The notes under the pieces: model-generated
What the model was told of the DNA's origin: nothing
Seen by the model: only the letters and a program-made list of their open reading frames with translations
Databases searched by the model: none
Shown: one piece after another, positions 7,261 through 13,892 of the stretch
How the letters are laid out: the number at the start of each line of letters is the position of its first letter
Position numbering within the stretch: position 1 is the first letter of the stretch
Program-made: the position numbers and the translations under genes
From: a virus
IMG/VR virus record: IMGVR_UViG_3300035140_000050
Strand: one strand, 5' to 3'
Length of the DNA: 16,750 bases

Positions 7261-7452
7261 TTGAGGAACGCCGTGGATTTTGAGCCCGAAAAGGATGCCT
7301 GGGACTTATTGAAAGCGGCTGGCTACAAAGAACATCGCTTCGAGATAGCCCCGATTGGTCGGGCACCGACGGAGAAAGAGTATTTAGCGATTTGGTATCT
7401 TTGTGACGAGTGGGATTGGGCTTGGGGAGGATATTCCGATGGCCAAGACTAA
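7261..7452 (+). CDS. small hypothetical protein (Trp/acidic-rich, 63 aa)
   Basis: ORF opens with TTG 4 nt after the tRNA, so the start is uncertain. It overlaps the next gene's start by 14 nt. Confidence 0.35.
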   Translation: MRNAVDFEPEKDAWDLLKAAGYKEHRFEIAPIGRAPTEKEYLAIWYLCDEWDWAWGGYSDGQD

Positions 7453-7702
7453 GATCGTTCACTGCAGACGAGATCCCTATGATGTCTACGTAGGGCGCCC
7501 CTCGAAATGGGGAAATCCCTTCAAAGTCGGAATCCACGGAACACGGACGGAAGTCATTAAGAGATATCGAGCTTGGATATCAGAGCAACCGGAACTGATG
7601 GCCGAGGTGCGTATACTCAAAGGCAGAGTTCTCGGCTGCTGGTGCGCGCCTCTTCCTTGTCATGCCGAAGTGCTAGCCGAGCTAGCAGATCAGGGGGAGT
7701 AA
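7439..7702 (+). CDS. DUF4326-family protein
   Basis: ATG 7439 with RBS ggggagga 7 nt upstream. Motifs match my recollection of DUF4326: IVHCRRDPYDVYVGRPSKWGNPF ... GRVLGCWCAPLPCHAEVL. Confidence 0.55.
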   Translation: MAKTKIVHCRRDPYDVYVGRPSKWGNPFKVGIHGTRTEVIKRYRAWISEQPELMAEVRILKGRVLGCWCAPLPCHAEVLAELADQGE

Positions 7703-8160: not shown

Positions 8161-8553
8161 ATGCCCATCGAAGACTACCCCAAGGATATTGACCCGGAGA
8201 TGGTGCCTTACATGGATGCTCTCAACGCTCTTCCAGGCGTCGAAACTCGATCATCCTGCATTGGGCATGATAAGAGCCACGCCCACGTCAGCCTCTGCAT
8301 CAGTTGGTCATTCGACCAACTTTTCCGGGTATTTATGCAGCTGGAGGCGGCGCCCGACGGAAACTTCGTAGTAGGGCTGAATGGTTACGAAGTCGGGGTA
8401 GGCATTCCACGGTGGGTAATCTGGTTTGAGGACAAGTGGGAAGAGCAAATTAAGCTGCTCATTTTCTTCTTGGGTCGAGCCTGTGTTAGCCCCGCTTTCG
8501 TCCTTGAGGATTTACTCAAAGTCGGAAAGGAGAAAATTGGTAATGAGTGTTGA
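8161..8553 (+). CDS. hypothetical protein (130 aa)
   Basis: ATG 8161 with a strong RBS aagaggag 6 nt upstream. Confidence 0.55.
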   Translation: MPIEDYPKDIDPEMVPYMDALNALPGVETRSSCIGHDKSHAHVSLCISWSFDQLFRVFMQLEAAPDGNFVVGLNGYEVGVGIPRWVIWFEDKWEEQIKLLIFFLGRACVSPAFVLEDLLKVGKEKIGNEC

Positions 8554-8953
8554 TTATTCGGCCCTCACCGTAGTTGGTGTTAAGATTAATAGAGCCGATC
8601 TTTCGGAAAAGCACGAAGTTCGGGGTTGCGCTCACGAAGTTCCTCCCGACGCCGCCTATTGTCCTACGTGTGGCAAGAAAATTAAGAACATCGTGGTGGC
8701 TCCTCTTCCCATCTTCGAGAAGGGCAACGGCAAAGTAGGTCCGTTTGATGCCATAGATAGCAGGACATCCGACGGGCTGGTCGTTGGAGTGGTGCTAGGC
8801 CTGTCCGGCGGCTATTGTGGATCCTTCAATTACTATGATCCCACCAAGCTGGACATCCAGAAAACCAAAGCAGAGCTGAAGGCGCTACTTGAGCCCTACG
8901 ACCTGTTCAAGGAGAACTCTTTTGGTCTCTGGACGGTTTTGCGGTGCGCGTAA
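8543..8953 (+). CDS. hypothetical protein with C..H...YCPTCG zinc-ribbon-like motif (136 aa)
   Basis: The track ORF starts at 8426. The internal ATG at 8543 has RBS aaggag and overlaps the previous stop by 11 nt, so it is the likelier start. Confidence 0.5.
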   Translation: MSVDYSALTVVGVKINRADLSEKHEVRGCAHEVPPDAAYCPTCGKKIKNIVVAPLPIFEKGNGKVGPFDAIDSRTSDGLVVGVVLGLSGGYCGSFNYYDPTKLDIQKTKAELKALLEPYDLFKENSFGLWTVLRCA

Positions 8954-9441: not shown

Positions 9442-9576
9442 ATGGCTGACGATAATGATCAAGAGTTGCCAGTAGATTGGGCTGAATTAGTATTAGACAA
9501 TAAGAGTACCGAGGACGAGCTAGACGAGGAGATGATGACCACATTTGATGAGTGGTCTGGACCAGACGAAGATTGA
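9442..9576 (+). CDS. 44-aa strongly acidic peptide (MADDNDQELPVDWAELVLDNKSTEDELDEEMMTTFDEWSGPDED)
   Basis: ATG 9442 lies 3 nt after the previous stop, with gggtggtga upstream. Below the track cutoff. Confidence 0.35.
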   Translation: MADDNDQELPVDWAELVLDNKSTEDELDEEMMTTFDEWSGPDED

Positions 9577-9854
9577 TAGGAAAAAAGTTGCCAAGAATCA
9601 GAATTACTCCTGCGGCCAGACAAGAGGCATTAGATGCTATTTCCAGGACACTAGAATGGCGGCTGGATCAAAAAGGTCCGCTTAGCTACACATCGTCCCA
9701 TGAGGTTTTGGGGATCATCACCGAAGAGTATCTTGAACTTATTGATGCAGTCAAAGCAAACGACCGCGCTGCGATTATTCGAGAGCTTCATGATATTGGC
9801 GTAGCGGCCATTTTTGGAGTAGCCAGCGCTGAGGAAGGAGGGTTTGATTGGTGA
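9552..9854 (+). CDS. possible MazG-like all-alpha NTP pyrophosphohydrolase
   Basis: Pattern LGIITEEYLELIDAVKAND...IIRELHDIGVAAIFGVAS resembles the EE..EL......D helical pair of MazG/HisE-type NTP-PPases. Start uncertain: ATG 9552 or TTG 9588. Confidence 0.35.
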   Translation: MVWTRRRLIGKKLPRIRITPAARQEALDAISRTLEWRLDQKGPLSYTSSHEVLGIITEEYLELIDAVKANDRAAIIRELHDIGVAAIFGVASAEEGGFDW

Positions 9855-10570
9855 GTCTATTCTACAAAGAAAATCCCAAAACGCGGGGCAGCGGAATTAT
9901 TTGTGCAATTCCGCAGAGAGGAACATGCCCCAACAAATGTTCGGATTGCTTCTTCCAATCTGGCAGATCGTATCTGGAGCCCCTTGAGGATAATCTCCCA
10001 AACATGCCGACGTATGATGATGTAGAAGGTCGCGTCGTGCGCGTGAACGACGGCAATGACAGCAACGTGCAGCGTGATCTAGTAATAAGCGAGACGGCGC
10101 GATATCCTCTACGGTTCTACAATACAGCAATCCCATCACTAGATTTTCCGGCGCCCGTTGTCTTGACCGTAAATCCCGGTGAAATGACGGATGAGGACTT
10201 TCATGGGATAGACGAGCCACCGATTAATCTGATGTTCGTGCGTATTCGAACGAATACATGGAACATGGCTACGGTGGCGCGTGCGGTAGCATATTATACT
10301 TCACGCGATGTGCCCGTTGTCCTGACATTCATGGCATACTTTGACCAGGACATCTCGCCCCAATATCGGCGCGACTACGAATTCCGTAAGCGCACATTGA
10401 ATTCGTATTGGTGCATCACCAAGGATGCTTACGCGCGCGTGATGGAGCGGTTCAAAGATGATTTTCCCGTCTACTCATGTAGTGGTCCAGGGCCGAGCGG
10501 CTGCAAGCATTGCGGGAACTGTCTGCGCGAATATTTCGCAACTATGGAACGGATGCAAAAGAATTTATAG
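9848..10570 (+). CDS. CxxxCxxC protein, possible radical-SAM-like enzyme (240 aa)
   Basis: Strong RBS aggaaggaggg immediately upstream of TTG 9848 / GTG 9851. N-terminal motif GTCPNKCSDCFF has C-x3-C-x2-C spacing. A second Cys cluster CSGPGPSGCKHCGNC lies near the C-terminus. No clear GGE/SAM motif seen. Confidence 0.35.
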   Translation: MVSLFYKENPKTRGSGIICAIPQRGTCPNKCSDCFFQSGRSYLEPLEDNLPNMPTYDDVEGRVVRVNDGNDSNVQRDLVISETARYPLRFYNTAIPSLDFPAPVVLTVNPGEMTDEDFHGIDEPPINLMFVRIRTNTWNMATVARAVAYYTSRDVPVVLTFMAYFDQDISPQYRRDYEFRKRTLNSYWCITKDAYARVMERFKDDFPVYSCSGPGPSGCKHCGNCLREYFATMERMQKNL

Positions 10571-10648
10571 GCTAATAACATGCGCAATAAGGGCCACACC
10601 TTTAGGAGACCCATAAAAAGAGGCTCTGAGGTCTTGATGAGAGGATAA

Positions 10649-11230
10649 ATGACTATGAGCGAGGATTGTCATGATTGCTACGGGCCTGATCCTGTTCGGT
10701 GGGAAGGAGAGCCCGTCGGCCCCCGCATGCGGGAAGGAGGGAGCATAAGGGAGGACATGCAGTGTCCGAACTGTGGTAGCCACGAGGTCTTTCCGGACCA
10801 CGGAGGTTACTATTGGCATTTTGATGATGACGAGGGGCGGCCCTGGCTGTGTAATGGGTGCGGGGGCCGCCCCAAACGGGCTTTTTTGATTTGTCCCGTT
10901 CGGGGAGTTTCTCCCGATGAGACCAAAGATCTGGTTGAGAGCCTCGAAAAGGACGGCTGGACGATTCATTGGCCCCCGCGCGATACAAACCAGGACGACC
11001 CAACGGGGCTGAGGATATGTGAAGATAACAGACAGGCCATTGCGGACGCCGCAGTGGTTTTCTTTGTATGGGACGGCAAATCCCAAGGGTGCCTTTTCGA
11101 TCTTGGGATGGCCTTTGCTATGAAAAAGCCTGTTCGATGCATGCTGCTTCCTCAGCCAACCGACGGCAAAAGCTTTCAGAATATGGCGCGGGAATGGGAG
11201 CAACGGACGACTCCGGAGAAAGAGAAATGA
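10649..11230 (+). CDS. nucleoside 2-deoxyribosyltransferase (NDT/DNPH1)-like domain fused to N-terminal zinc-ribbon motifs
   Basis: C-terminal half FLICPVRG...DNRQAIADAAVVFFVWDGKSQGCLFDLGMAFAMKKPV matches the NDT/Rcl flavodoxin-like fold pattern (..D.aD.vva..dg...Gt.fElG.A.a.gKPV). N-terminal half has CHDC...CPNCG...CNGCGG. RBS gagagga. Confidence 0.45.
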   Translation: MTMSEDCHDCYGPDPVRWEGEPVGPRMREGGSIREDMQCPNCGSHEVFPDHGGYYWHFDDDEGRPWLCNGCGGRPKRAFLICPVRGVSPDETKDLVESLEKDGWTIHWPPRDTNQDDPTGLRICEDNRQAIADAAVVFFVWDGKSQGCLFDLGMAFAMKKPVRCMLLPQPTDGKSFQNMAREWEQRTTPEKEK

Positions 11231-11520
11231 GGATACACCAGATATTGTCCCCCGAAATAAGGGACAAGATACCTGATGTCTCTTTTGTCTGCCTGATTCG
11301 CCTTTCTCTAGTACCCGAAGCGCCTGATCAGGCGATGCTGCGGCCAGAGTCCGTGAAGTCGCTAGCTCAATTTCTTGAGCAATCAGACTGGCCCGAAAAT
11401 GCCGCCCTCCTTCTTACCCCTCACGGTAACCTTGAATTAGGATGGGCTGAGGGGGGCTATGATTGCGGCATTGAATTCAAGGACGTAGATAGTGTCGAGT
11501 CCTGGAAATTCGAGGTTTGA
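11227..11520 (+). CDS. hypothetical protein (97 aa)
   Basis: The track ORF 11068-11520 overlaps the previous gene. ATG 11227 is preceded by ggagaaagagaa and forms an ATGA overlap with the previous stop. Confidence 0.45.
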   Translation: MRIHQILSPEIRDKIPDVSFVCLIRLSLVPEAPDQAMLRPESVKSLAQFLEQSDWPENAALLLTPHGNLELGWAEGGYDCGIEFKDVDSVESWKFEV

Positions 11521-11926
11521 AGTGGATCCGGTTAGCCTTCGTCGACTGACCTTAGAAGAAGTTCAGCAGGGCGGGCTTCATTTGGTTGATTTTGATGGGA
11601 CAATGACTACGGGAGGCTACCCCGACATTGGGGAATACAGGCCCAAAGTTATAGCCTATCTTTCTCTCCTTCGTACCACGGCCCCCGTTGTGATCTGGAC
11701 ATGCCGAACATCTCTAGCACTGTGCAAGACCCCAATTGATGTTTCTGAAGCCGTGCGGCAAATCGAGGCGTGGCTAACAGAGAACGAGATCGATCAAATT
11801 GACGGCATCTTGATGCACGACAAACCGATCTGCATATCCTACATTGGCGACGAGACAATTCATCCCGATGAAATAGAACGAGTGAACGAGATCATAAACT
11901 TAGTTGCGTTGAGTAAGACAAAGTAA
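11492..11926 (+). CDS. HAD-superfamily phosphatase-like small protein
   Basis: HAD motif I LVDFDGTMT (DxDGT), motif II VVIWTCRTS, motif IV-like YIGDETIHPDE. Alternative GTG start at 11522 with gaggt 5 nt upstream. Confidence 0.5.
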   Translation: MSSPGNSRFEVDPVSLRRLTLEEVQQGGLHLVDFDGTMTTGGYPDIGEYRPKVIAYLSLLRTTAPVVIWTCRTSLALCKTPIDVSEAVRQIEAWLTENEIDQIDGILMHDKPICISYIGDETIHPDEIERVNEIINLVALSKTK

Positions 11927-11938
11927 AGCACTCAAGTC

Positions 11939-11965
11939 TTGACTAAAGATTAGTTGTGGTATTTT
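11939..11965 (+). promoter_or_regulatory. candidate sigma70-like promoter: TTGACT - 15 nt - TGg-TATTTT (extended -10)
   Basis: Sits in the 52-nt gap after a long run of translationally coupled genes. Hexamers read directly from the sequence. The spacer is short (15 nt), hence low confidence. Confidence 0.25.
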
Positions 11966-11978
11966 GCAGGAATAGATC

Positions 11979-12158
11979 ATGGTACACGGTATATACGCCT
12001 ACATCAACAGAGATGCCCTCAGAGACCATGTTAAGCGCGTATGTAAGAAAAATACAAAAGCAAAATGTAAGTGCTGCCAAAAGTGTCCTTTTAGGGACGC
12101 AGTAGAGAACATGTTGGCTGTTCTGGCTGTGGAGAAGAAACTTGGGAAGCATAAGTGA
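11979..12158 (+). CDS. 59-aa Cys-rich basic small protein (…CKKNTKAKCKCCQKCPF…)
   Basis: ATG 11979 with RBS aggaa 6 nt upstream, ending TGA 12156-12158. Below the track cutoff. Confidence 0.4.
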   Translation: MVHGIYAYINRDALRDHVKRVCKKNTKAKCKCCQKCPFRDAVENMLAVLAVEKKLGKHK

Positions 12159-12714
12159 TACTGAGCTTGAGCGTTTTCTGCTCTTCTCAATCGCCGTGGC
12201 CGGCAAGACAGCTTGGATGATCGAGAAAGCAATGGACGCCTTTCTTGGTGATGCAAAGCAGCCGTTTGCCGAGGTTCGACGGCTGGTTAAACAGCGTCGG
12301 CTGAGGAGCAGGCTCAAGCAGGCCCGAATGGGGCAATACGCTAAGATAACCAGGGGCTTCAAGGAGGTCGCATTCAGCGGCCTTGATCTGCGTACCTGCA
12401 CTCCCGACGATCTCATGACGATTCACGGTATCGGTCCCAAGACGGCCCGCTTCTTCCTGCTCTACACGAGGAAGGATGCTCGATACGCTGTACTGGACAC
12501 TCATATCTTGGCTTTCCTTAGAGAAGCAGGGCACAAGGTTCCTAAGACGACACCACAAGGAGCCAAACGATACGCAGAGCTTGAGGCGTTGGTCTTGAAG
12601 ATTGCTGACGAGCAGGGTGTGAGGCCTGCCGATTTTGATACGGCCATTTGGATGAGCCGAGCCAGGCGTAATCCAAATACAGGACGAGCGAATCCGGGGG
12701 TGCCTGAGCTATGA
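12142..12714 (+). CDS. HhH-GPD superfamily DNA glycosylase, small 8-oxoguanine-glycosylase (Ogg2/thermostable Ogg)-like
   Basis: Helix-hairpin-helix IHGIGPKTARFFL followed by an Asp-containing segment (RYAVLDTHILAFL), plus N-terminal FSIAVAGKTA resembling the F.ILTANSSA block of small Oggs. TTG start at 12142. Confidence 0.5.
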   Translation: MGSISDTELERFLLFSIAVAGKTAWMIEKAMDAFLGDAKQPFAEVRRLVKQRRLRSRLKQARMGQYAKITRGFKEVAFSGLDLRTCTPDDLMTIHGIGPKTARFFLLYTRKDARYAVLDTHILAFLREAGHKVPKTTPQGAKRYAELEALVLKIADEQGVRPADFDTAIWMSRARRNPNTGRANPGVPEL

Positions 12715-12965
12715 GCAAGAAGTGGAAGACGGAAGCTATCGCTAAACGGGTGAGGGAGGCCAAGAACATCGTTATTGCTACGCTCGGGGTAGTGGGTGGG
12801 GAAGTGCTGCCCGAGACTCAACTCGATAAACTAGCCCACGACGACATCGATCTTTTGGCACTCTATATGGAACTTGAGGATTCTTTCTATATAGAGATCC
12901 AGGAGGATACACCTCCTAAGACAGTGCAGGATTGCATTGATCTGGCAATTCAGGAGCTACGCTAG
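12711..12965 (+). CDS. acyl-carrier-protein-like protein lacking the phosphopantetheine-attachment Ser
   Basis: ATGA overlap with the previous gene. LAHDDIDLLALYMELEDSFYIEIQEDTPPKTVQDCIDLAIQEL aligns by eye to E. coli ACP [41 protein letters not shown], but the DSL serine is replaced (DDI). Confidence 0.5.
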   Translation: MSKKWKTEAIAKRVREAKNIVIATLGVVGGEVLPETQLDKLAHDDIDLLALYMELEDSFYIEIQEDTPPKTVQDCIDLAIQELR

Positions 12966-13277: not shown

Positions 13278-13892
13278 ATGGGTAGAATCTACGCCGATCT
13301 CGATGAGCTTATGGAAGCTGCTCGTAACTCCGGGGTTACCCGAGACGACGTGATAATGATCAACGGAAAGCCCGTAAAACTGCGCCCAAAGATCCGCTCC
13401 CACTGTCTTCCTGGAGGCTTAAATAACCCCGATAGGTGGACCCCCCAGAGGCCGTGGTTCGAAACACATACCGTACAATGGGGCGACATGGGAGTAGTTA
13501 TCGGATCCAAGGGCACATACCGCACCGCGTTTTTTGAAGTATTTTCGACCATTGACCCAAGATTCGTGCGGGGCGAGGGAAGTACAGTCGAAGAGGCCGA
13601 GGCAGACGCGTGGCAAAAAACAGTGAAGTTCTGCAAGTGCCAGAATCATGAATTCGAACGAGGCACGTATAGAAACGGCGCGGGACTCTGCAAGCACTGT
13701 GGTATGTTCAAATCGGGTGTCTTCCCCCCGAGTACGCATTGTACGATCTGTGGCATCCCCACTTATTGGACTTATGATACGGATGATAACTGGTATTGTG
13801 AGAAACATGCCAATGACATTCCTGAGGAGAAGCTGACTGCCTCGGGCAAGTTTATCCGCGATATACGGAGGGACGAAAAAAATGACTCCTAA
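13278..13892 (+). CDS. hypothetical protein with C-terminal Cys/His cluster (CKC..H...CKHCG...HCTICG...CEKH)
   Basis: ATG 13278 with RBS taggga 6 nt upstream. Confidence 0.5.
   Translation: MGRIYADLDELMEAARNSGVTRDDVIMINGKPVKLRPKIRSHCLPGGLNNPDRWTPQRPWFETHTVQWGDMGVVIGSKGTYRTAFFEVFSTIDPRFVRGEGSTVEEAEADAWQKTVKFCKCQNHEFERGTYRNGAGLCKHCGMFKSGVFPPSTHCTICGIPTYWTYDTDDNWYCEKHANDIPEEKLTASGKFIRDIRRDEKNDS

Follow-up and report, generated by a model that had tools for sequence, protein, structure and literature searches.

The DNA we analysed, a 16,750-nt stretch referred to here as the window, derives from an uncultivated, tRNA-rich phage and carries a long, co-directional and tightly packed row of genes of which the block under study forms one part (Table 1). 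The original prediction had seen in this block six translationally coupled genes in a row for enzymes acting on nucleotides or DNA bases. All six are indeed present on the plus strand, at the coordinates predicted; the row, however, comprises eight ORFs, all on that strand, with a 97-aa ORF and a 59-aa Cys-rich ORF having been overlooked, and gaps of 78 and 52 nt leave two of its junctions uncoupled. In order along the row, the junctions measure -4, -7 (the overlap between the MazG-like and radical-SAM genes), +78, -4, +1, +52, -17, -4 and +18 nt; the ATG of the 97-aa ORF overlaps the preceding stop (ATGA) and its end lies 1 nt ahead of the GTG of the HAD gene. Overlapping ORFs go on both upstream and downstream of the six predicted genes, and stop/start overlaps are common throughout the window. 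Promoter-like sites are not in excess (2 found, 4.2 expected from shuffled sequence), and the surplus of terminator-like sites (7 against 3.5 +/- 2.0 expected) is non-significant. The block may well be part of one long transcription unit, in which passengers are loosely attached to a functional core.

Table 1. Features of the block and their positions in the window
Feature	Position	Strand	Remarks
44-aa ORF	9442-9576		stop overlapped 4 nt by MazG-like start
MazG-like all-alpha NTP pyrophosphohydrolase	9573-9854	+	93 aa from TTG 9573
rSAM-240, radical-SAM-fold enzyme of unannotated family	9848-10570	+	
Zinc-ribbon + mini-NDT protein	10649-11230	+	alternative start ATG 10757
Zinc-ribbon N-terminal extension	about 10649-10870	+	fused to mini-NDT
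Mini-NDT domain	about 10874-11230	+	roughly 112 aa
97-aa ORF	11227-11520	+	insertion specific to window genome
Small cap-less HAD-type phosphatase	11522-11926	+	134 aa from GTG 11522
59-aa basic Cys-rich ORF	11979-12158	+	pI 9.8, five Cys
Ogg2/AGOG-type HhH-GPD DNA glycosylase/AP-lyase-like protein	12142-12714	+	
Acidic ACP-like protein without phosphopantetheine serine	12711-12965	+	pI 4.55

Protein families of the block

The MazG-like protein, whose longest ORF form begins at GTG 9552 (the 93-aa form is the choice of gene callers on identical contigs), exceeds the Pfam MazG cutoff (PF03819, 25.5 bits against 22), scores 22.0 against a cutoff of 21.3 with PRA-PH and displays, read straight from its sequence, the metal-binding motif EYLE-x16-RELHD (ExxE-x16-ExxD). 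The next gene encodes rSAM-240, a protein of some 240 aa whose family members in diverse phage contigs share roughly 60% identity. A CPNKCSDC cluster motif lies at its N-terminal side, the CxxxCxxC residues (C27, C31, C34) are invariant in 30 sequences and the protein adopts the partial TIM-barrel radical-SAM fold; one SAM-binding [4Fe-4S] cluster is predicted. Extra to this motif, an invariant C-terminal C-x7-C-x2-C-x2-C probably provides a second Cys4 metal site. The family numbers about 1,300 protein clusters, its profile retrieving only 235 cluster representatives among 1.84 billion, and extends to chromosomal contigs of Patescibacteria and DPANN; one copy bears an intein, and elsewhere its neighbours include HD_3, dGTP_diPhyd_N, cytidylate kinase, ThyX and IMPDH. 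Neither Pfam, NCBIfam nor PHROG gave a match even at E = 1, and rSAM-240 is absent from every deposited GenBank phage genome searched. Since its profile connects to no characterised radical-SAM family, it offers no clue to the chemistry. Spore photoproduct lyase (SPL) was considered as an identity and rejected: rSAM-240 neither belongs to that family nor has its length of ~340 aa.

Downstream, a zinc-ribbon extension precedes a domain of NDT fold, mini-NDT; the protein scores 28.3 bits with PF05014 (cutoff 28.8), under which most of its close homologs are listed, and in other loci its neighbours include dUTPase, DCD and RNR. The catalytic Glu was not found at its aligned position in mini-NDT: where a solved NDT has the Glu of VELGMA, there is an invariant Asp151 (FDLGMA). 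This Asp takes the place of the nucleophile Glu of NDT and DNPH1, which makes mini-NDT a putative rather than an established catalyst.

Motif I (DxDxT) of the HAD protein reads DFDGT and aligns with 2obb and BT0820-type models. Its matches are phrog_1238 at 3e-8 (residues 31-134 of the 144-aa form of the longest ORF, which starts at 11492), PDB 2obb at 0.0098 and the NCBIfam BT0820-type model at 3.8e-5, the last aligning with the N-terminal third only and, at 24 bits, falling far under its cutoff of 165. The glycosylase exceeds the cutoff of Pfam Ogg-HhH (PF22175, 28.6 against 27) and matches phrog_11575 at 1e-47 and PDB Ogg 9o00 at 1.3e-10, with the GIGPKTA lysine and LDTHIL aspartate aligned; 16 phage homologs all retain these catalytic residues, and the protein is ~45% identical to phiCbK-like phage proteins. 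The last protein resembles ACP models (1.8e-8, under the cutoffs of all of them) and PDB ACPs (7.6e-5, LGADSLD aligned to LAHDDID), and the position of the carrier Ser (DSL) is occupied by Asp in the window (DDI) and by Glu in the ortholog of the relative L083 (DEI; LAADEID); GenBank phages gave no match to it. Profile searches found no family for the 97-aa and 59-aa ORFs.

That the enzymes are of nucleotide or DNA-base type, as predicted, is supported. Nearly all domain calls made beforehand prove to be real, including the MazG-like protein, the radical-SAM-type Cys triad, the zinc-ribbon-fused NDT-like protein, the DxDGT phosphatase and the Ogg-like glycosylase; the ACP mimic holds as a likeness, in a protein without the carrier serine.

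Fusions, adjacency and gene turnover

The first three genes are linked by fusions of their homologs. In P0276, found identical in two samples, rSAM-240 (residues 4-224, E 1.3e-64) is joined to mini-NDT (residues 250-378, hhalign 99.2%, E 6.8e-20), and a thymidylate kinase gene follows downstream with an overlap of 8 nt. In P0288, rSAM-240 is fused to a domain matching PDB 2p06 AF_0060 (4.4e-7), which SCOP places in the all-alpha NTP pyrophosphohydrolase superfamily (PMC2238974). Moreover, of 19 viral loci with mini-NDT, 5 have an unrelated radical-SAM gene (family phrog_9298) as its immediate neighbour, in both gene orders and with radical-SAM proteins just 22-50% identical, and a different, 160-aa NDT-like gene occupies position +1 or +2 of rSAM-240 in several loci (L014, L019, L021/L022, L038, L068, L076); immediate radical-SAM/NDT-like adjacency recurs in three different family combinations. 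Glycosylase loci, which served as control, contain none of these families. Within the fetched flanks, no partner was found in ~55 of the 64 rSAM-240 loci and 14 of the 19 mini-NDT loci, and a small number of phage lineages may account for the adjacency cases. With independent support from fusions and adjacency, it is quite plausible that the MazG-like protein, rSAM-240 and mini-NDT work together at the nucleotide level, so that the joint action originally proposed for all six genes finds backing for the first three and not for the remainder.

Colinear relatives show how the block comes apart. L083 has no radical-SAM gene, 97-aa ORF or glycosylase and retains MazG (67% conserved), NDT and HAD, from which it follows that NDT does not depend on rSAM-240. 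In L107, the 97-aa ORF is missing, rSAM and NDT overlap and the glycosylase is 83% identical. NDT and HAD abut in both relatives, where HAD is 84% identical and the 59-aa ORF 64-67% conserved, and L108 has only the HAD of the block (59% identity), adjoining a vault-like gene. Among the loci of the glycosylase family (16 viral contigs of 40-560 kb), none of the other block families lies nearby. That the six genes make up one module is therefore not upheld: three genes of the row are absent from L083, the glycosylase is unlinked in those 16 contigs and HAD stands alone in L108. Based on presence and absence in L083 and L107, the 97-aa ORF, the glycosylase, the 59-aa ORF and the serine-less ACP-like protein can reasonably be seen as passengers, i.e. 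accessory genes that come and go independently of one another and form no steps of the core's pathway. Presence and absence of the radical-SAM gene do coincide with those of the glycosylase in three relatives, and the two could be linked after all. A note of caution follows: several suggestive domains in succession along a phage operon need not make one pathway, when half of the row is dispensable in a close relative.

A candidate core and its rivals

Our preferred reading of the block, to which we give a probability of about 50%, is that a core processing nucleotides is accompanied by accessory genes independent of it. Folds, motifs and genetic linkage (fusions and adjacency) are established; the substrates, step order and product given here are inferred. 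The MazG-like pyrophosphohydrolase would act first, turning a (deoxy)nucleoside triphosphate into the monophosphate; rSAM-240 and then the NDT-like enzyme would next act on the resulting nucleotide, the latter breaking or exchanging its N-glycosidic bond. The nucleotide might be destroyed, leaving base and sugar-5-phosphate, or be turned into a non-canonical (d)NMP, and the downstream HAD phosphatase may dephosphorylate a product. More tentatively, rSAM-240 and its NDT-fold partner could represent an undescribed nucleotide pathway present in Patescibacteria/DPANN cells and in uncultivated phages, the latter probably anaerobic, fed by an all-alpha NTP pyrophosphatase and followed by a thymidylate-type kinase; strong conservation of rSAM-240, the intein-bearing copy and the two fusions suit a core nucleotide enzyme better than an accessory gene that can be dispensed with. 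If so, its product would be a non-canonical (d)NMP destined for DNA, or it would use radical chemistry for a core step in precursor supply, for example base methylation or sugar modification.

Gene-sized presence/absence differences between close relatives, varying neighbourhoods of rSAM-240, mini-NDT and the glycosylase, and stop/start overlaps that are general in the window would suit a pure mosaic, eight unrelated accessory ORFs brought together by early-region packing with no two cooperating. We consider this rather unlikely in view of the two rSAM-240 fusions, the one with mini-NDT recovered from two samples, and of the radical-SAM/NDT-like adjacency in its three family combinations. At the other extreme, a single pathway of all six genes, for dNTP-pool remodelling and virion DNA base hypermodification as initially suggested, agrees with known exclusion and modification logic in its enzyme classes and with the thymidylate kinase adjoining P0276. 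Examples of that logic are the dTTP pyrophosphatase and dTMP phosphatases of dU-DNA phages, in which Dcd is accompanied by dTMP phosphatase or dTTP pyrophosphatase (PMC12697855). Such a pathway is nonetheless very unlikely, given the three genes missing from L083, the unlinked glycosylase and HAD elsewhere and an ACP-like protein whose usual attachment site cannot take a prosthetic group. Moreover, the window ORFs scanned with Pfam include no known base-synthesising or DNA-inserting enzyme, be it a thymidylate-synthase-like hydroxymethylase, DpdA/TGT with QueC/D/E, a 5-hmdU/base kinase or a glycosyltransferase. The nucleotide-type enzymes of that suggestion stand, its hypermodification part finds no known hallmark enzyme in these ORFs, and DNA hypermodification in this phage is a mere possibility.

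Alternatively, MazG, radical-SAM, NDT and HAD might serve counter-defence and destroy host immune nucleotides rather than DNA precursors, the targets of which could be ddhNTP-type chain terminators, cyclic or ADPR-derived signals or dITP-type signals. This we think is quite unlikely, since ~60% identity of rSAM-240 in very diverse phages, its presence in Patescibacteria/DPANN and the intein are a pattern of core nucleotide enzymes, not of fast-evolving anti-defence genes, and a thymidylate kinase is linked to P0276. Least probable to us is a DNA-repair set in which an SPL-like radical-SAM protein, the Ogg-type glycosylase/AP-lyase and a 3'-phosphatase-type HAD mend damaged phage DNA: the SPL match, at 6% identity, is scarcely above those to viperin and QueE, no viral locus among the 74 + 16 examined has rSAM-240 together with the glycosylase family, and the fusions indicate nucleotide rather than DNA enzymes.

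Comparison with known systems

DNA modifications by which phages overcome restriction and CRISPR depend on enzymes of their nucleotide pools, and these enzymes have repeatedly been a source of new enzymology. Being fused to an NTP pyrophosphatase in one protein and to a minimal partner of N-glycosidase type in another, rSAM-240 offers a concrete two- or three-enzyme system in which to seek what may be a new nucleotide reaction. Among nucleotide-directed radical-SAM enzymes, rSAM-240 stands apart by its 240 aa and additional invariant C-terminal cysteines, and it has no detectable sequence relationship to viperin/pVip, QueE, MoaA, OxsB with OxsA or SPL. Compared with Lactobacillus-type NDT, DNPH1/Rcl and MilB/BlsM, mini-NDT has a core of only about 112 aa, the invariant Asp in place of the catalytic Glu, RDTxQ and KSFQNM motifs of its own and, in the window lineage, the N-terminal zinc ribbon. 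By Pfam score and aligned catalytic Lys/Asp, the glycosylase appears to be like Ogg2/AGOG-type 8-oxoguanine glycosylase/AP-lyases, yet belongs to the phage-specific family phrog_11575, and its first ~70 residues fall outside the best alignment with solved Ogg enzymes (query 71-172). Likeness of the ACP-like protein to acyl carrier protein spans most of the domain, helix II region included, except that Asp or Glu stands for the phosphopantetheine Ser.

Phage dNTP-pool sets are known from T4 (dCTPase gp56, dCMP hydroxymethylase, dNMP kinase), from the dU-DNA phages mentioned above and from 2-aminoadenine phages (MazZ/DatZ/PurZ). Like these, the present genes lie in an early or replication region, have an NTP pyrophosphohydrolase adjoining enzymes of nucleoside monophosphates and are linked, through a fusion homolog, to a dNMP kinase. 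Unlike them, the window has no thymidylate-synthase-like, PurZ-like or deaminase enzyme and instead presents a radical-SAM enzyme and an NDT-fold protein as the candidate middle steps, a combination that to our knowledge is used by none of those sets.

Domain content and layout of the block

Positions 9552-12965 had been described as six translationally coupled genes with signatures of enzymes acting on nucleotides or DNA bases. The domain calls for the individual ORFs hold in profile, PHROG and PDB comparisons. The MazG-like protein scores 25.5 against a Pfam MazG cutoff of 22 and carries the ExxE...ExxD motif, while the HAD-like assignment is based on a DFDGT motif, phrog_1238 (3e-8), a BT0820-type match below threshold and PDB 2obb. 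The HhH protein lies over the Ogg-HhH cutoff and matches phrog_11575 (1e-47); aligned with a solved Ogg enzyme, it has both the lysine and the aspartate in place, and neither residue varies among 16 phage homologs. Similarity of the ACP-like protein to ACPs scores under the cutoffs; at the carrier-serine position this protein has Asp in the window and Glu in the ortholog from L083, a relative of the window phage.

Principal features of the window and the block
Feature	Position	Strand	Matches
HNH endonuclease and DUF4326 protein, respectively	483-1040 and 7403-7702	+	
Vault-like protein, 865 aa	2842-5439	+	major-vault-protein shoulder domain (9.5e-25), vault repeat
Cys-rich protein flanking block	8426-8953	+	weak zinc-ribbon or C1-like
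MazG-like	9573/9552-9854		
CxxxCxxC protein (rSAM-240), 240 aa	9848-10570		
Zinc-ribbon + NDT-like protein, 193 aa	10649-11230		
97-aa ORF	11227-11520		
HAD-like protein	11522/11492-11926		
59-aa basic Cys-rich ORF	11979-12158		
HhH protein, 190 aa	12142-12714		
ACP-like protein, 84 aa	12711-12965		
Cys-rich protein flanking block	13278-13892	+	weak zinc-ribbon or C1-like

The claim of six coupled genes in a row does not stand, as the block holds eight ORFs. Junctions along the row are, in order, -4, -7, +78, -4, +1, +52, -17, -4 and +18 nt; tight packing is therefore general, extending past the block, with two breaks inside it. Promoter-like sites in the window do not exceed the shuffled expectation, and the excess of terminator-like sites (7 vs 3.5 +/- 2.0 expected) is non-significant.

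The window is phage-like; all its long ORFs are on the + strand and a PHROG virion protein lies toward its right end. Exact protein look-ups for its parent contig returned nothing longer than fragments (1.5-10.8 kb). Eight tRNA genes (Ile-TAT, Leu-CAA, Lys-CTT, Phe-GAA and four different Ser) with small ORFs interspersed occupy the stretch between 132 and 7257 (+), and four Ser isoacceptors in one phage are unusual. The DUF4326 protein (3.7e-29; phrog_464) recurs close to members of rSAM-240, the ~240-aa radical-SAM-fold family, in L028, L030, L056 and L057. Small Cys-motif proteins are unusually dense in the region (the two flanking the block, the NDT zinc ribbon and the 59-aa ORF).

Conservation of the block in relatives and other loci

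Three relatives of the window phage were found, among which the predicted six-gene module is not conserved: L083 lacks three block genes, L107 (2.2 kb) lacks the 97-aa ORF and L108 has of the block genes the HAD gene alone (59%), adjoining the vault-like gene. The vault-like protein, which sits among phage tRNA genes and had no match in a PHROG search, is 76% identical in L083 and 53% in L108. From this gene to the end, L083, a 43.6-kb scaffold, is colinear with the window and retains MazG (67%), NDT (73%), HAD (84%), the 59-aa ORF (67%) and the ACP-like protein (52%); absent are the radical-SAM gene, the 97-aa ORF and the glycosylase. At the place of the window's radical-SAM gene, between MazG and NDT, L083 has a 100-N scaffold gap (9855-9954), and we considered whether the gene could be hidden there. 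We reject this, since a duplicated 55-nt sequence borders the gap on both sides and fuses the MazG 3' end straight to the NDT start codon, so that the absence is real. The gap itself may reflect an assembly-graph branch, i.e. population variation at the site. L083 also has, ~6 kb downstream (16797-17486, -) and next to a metallophosphatase-like gene, another NDT-superfamily gene (DUF4406 / weak PF05014, 229 aa) that is unrelated to the first.

L107 carries rSAM-240 (69%), NDT, HAD, the 59-aa ORF, the glycosylase (83%) and the ACP-like protein. Each of the three relatives either has both the radical-SAM gene and the glycosylase or has neither, a pattern for which shared ancestry is as good an explanation as function. 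Of the five shared genes, two are somewhat more similar to the window in L107 than in L083; for the remaining three, L107 is level with L083 or marginally more distant.

Beyond these relatives, tblastn across 74 viral rSAM-240 loci placed none of the window's other genes around rSAM-240 outside the same phage. Nor was rSAM-240 near mini-NDT, the ~112-aa NDT-like domain family, in any of 21 mini-NDT loci, or any other block family near the glycosylase in 16 loci (viral contigs of 40-560 kb). HAD-anchored scans gave four loci in metagenomes and none in viral contigs. Isolates with a member of the glycosylase family are phiCbK-like Caulobacter phages and an Erythrobacter phage, where its neighbours are rII genes, a helicase or DNA polymerase I; the protein after the phiCbK glycosylase was tested for an ACP-like identity and is not ACP-like. 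Against 50,697 GenBank phages, neither the block DNA nor, in protein searches, mini-NDT, the ACP-like protein or rSAM-240 found a match.

Fusions and neighbours of the radical-SAM family

The rSAM-240 profile matched just 235 of 1.84 billion cluster representatives, and two of its members are fused to further domains of the kinds found in the block. P0276 (381 aa) joins rSAM-240 (residues 4-224) to mini-NDT (residues 250-378; hhalign 99.2%, E 6.8e-20), and is identical in two independent samples (L150 432-1577, L151 67-1212), the downstream gene, overlapping by 8 nt, matching thymidylate kinase (2e-25). P0288 joins rSAM-240 to a C-terminal domain which Pfam does not recognise and which in a PDB sequence search matches 2p06, AF_0060 (4.4e-7), a protein placed by SCOP along with MazG in the all-alpha NTP pyrophosphohydrolase superfamily (PMC2238974).

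Adjacency points the same way. In five of 19 mini-NDT loci (L086, L088, L089, L096, L102; near position 6000 in each), mini-NDT directly adjoins and overlaps a gene for a radical-SAM protein of a different family, phrog_9298 (~285 aa). The two genes are found in either order, and these radical-SAM proteins are only 22-50% identical to one another. Profile-profile comparison of phrog_9298 with rSAM-240 aligned the Cys motif alone. The phrog_9298-type family is also seen in Clostridium tetani phage phiCT453B and Bacteroides phages. A 160-aa PF05014-type gene, different from mini-NDT, lies at +1/+2 of rSAM-240 in L014, L019, L021/L022, L038, L068 and L076, and 2.3 kb from it in one jumbo phage; the viral contig L014 (4836-8779) has phrog_9298 radical-SAM, rSAM-240 and the 160-aa gene all within 4 kb. 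Further neighbours of rSAM-240 are HD_3, dGTP_diPhyd_N, cytidylate kinase, ThyX and, in Patescibacteria, IMPDH, and those of mini-NDT are dUTPase, dCTP-deaminase-like genes and RNR. MazG-like neighbours of rSAM-240 in a motif scan were too noisy for a count (background 5%).

Cellular carriers of rSAM-240 (21 of 185,579 species genomes; L113-L133) are mostly Patescibacteria, DPANN archaea and Thermoguttaceae MAGs; in some, the contig with the gene is 190-920 kb long, and IMP dehydrogenase is among the neighbours in three. Among variants, the P0309 gene is interrupted by an intein that includes an HNH endonuclease, and P0245 bears a WDGH domain at its N-terminal end. Foldseek against predicted viral structures returned nothing at E <= 0.001; the best weak matches include other viral radical-SAM proteins.

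A proposed nucleotide-processing core with accessory genes

The most economical reading is in two parts. The MazG-like enzyme, rSAM-240 and mini-NDT would form a core that processes nucleotides, with HAD possibly following it. The accessory genes, each mobile independently, would be the Ogg2-type glycosylase, the ACP-like protein that lacks the serine, and the 59-aa and 97-aa ORFs. Folds, motifs and genetic linkage of the core are observed; its substrates, step order and product are inferred. Against a strict version of the core speak L083, which does without rSAM-240, the fact that most rSAM-240 and mini-NDT loci have no partner within the fetched flanks, and Asp in place of Glu at the NDT nucleophile position of mini-NDT. 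The enzyme classes are in keeping with the proposed DNA hypermodification; Pfam matched no known hypermodification hallmark enzyme among the window ORFs scanned.

Taken together, the original observation is borne out in part, and its interpretation likewise finds partial support. Literature searches turned up no account of the rSAM-240 family and none of phages that pair a radical-SAM with an NDT protein. What is novel here is not a six-gene module but an unannotated, highly conserved putative radical-SAM family tied by fusion and adjacency to NDT-fold and all-alpha NTP-pyrophosphatase proteins.
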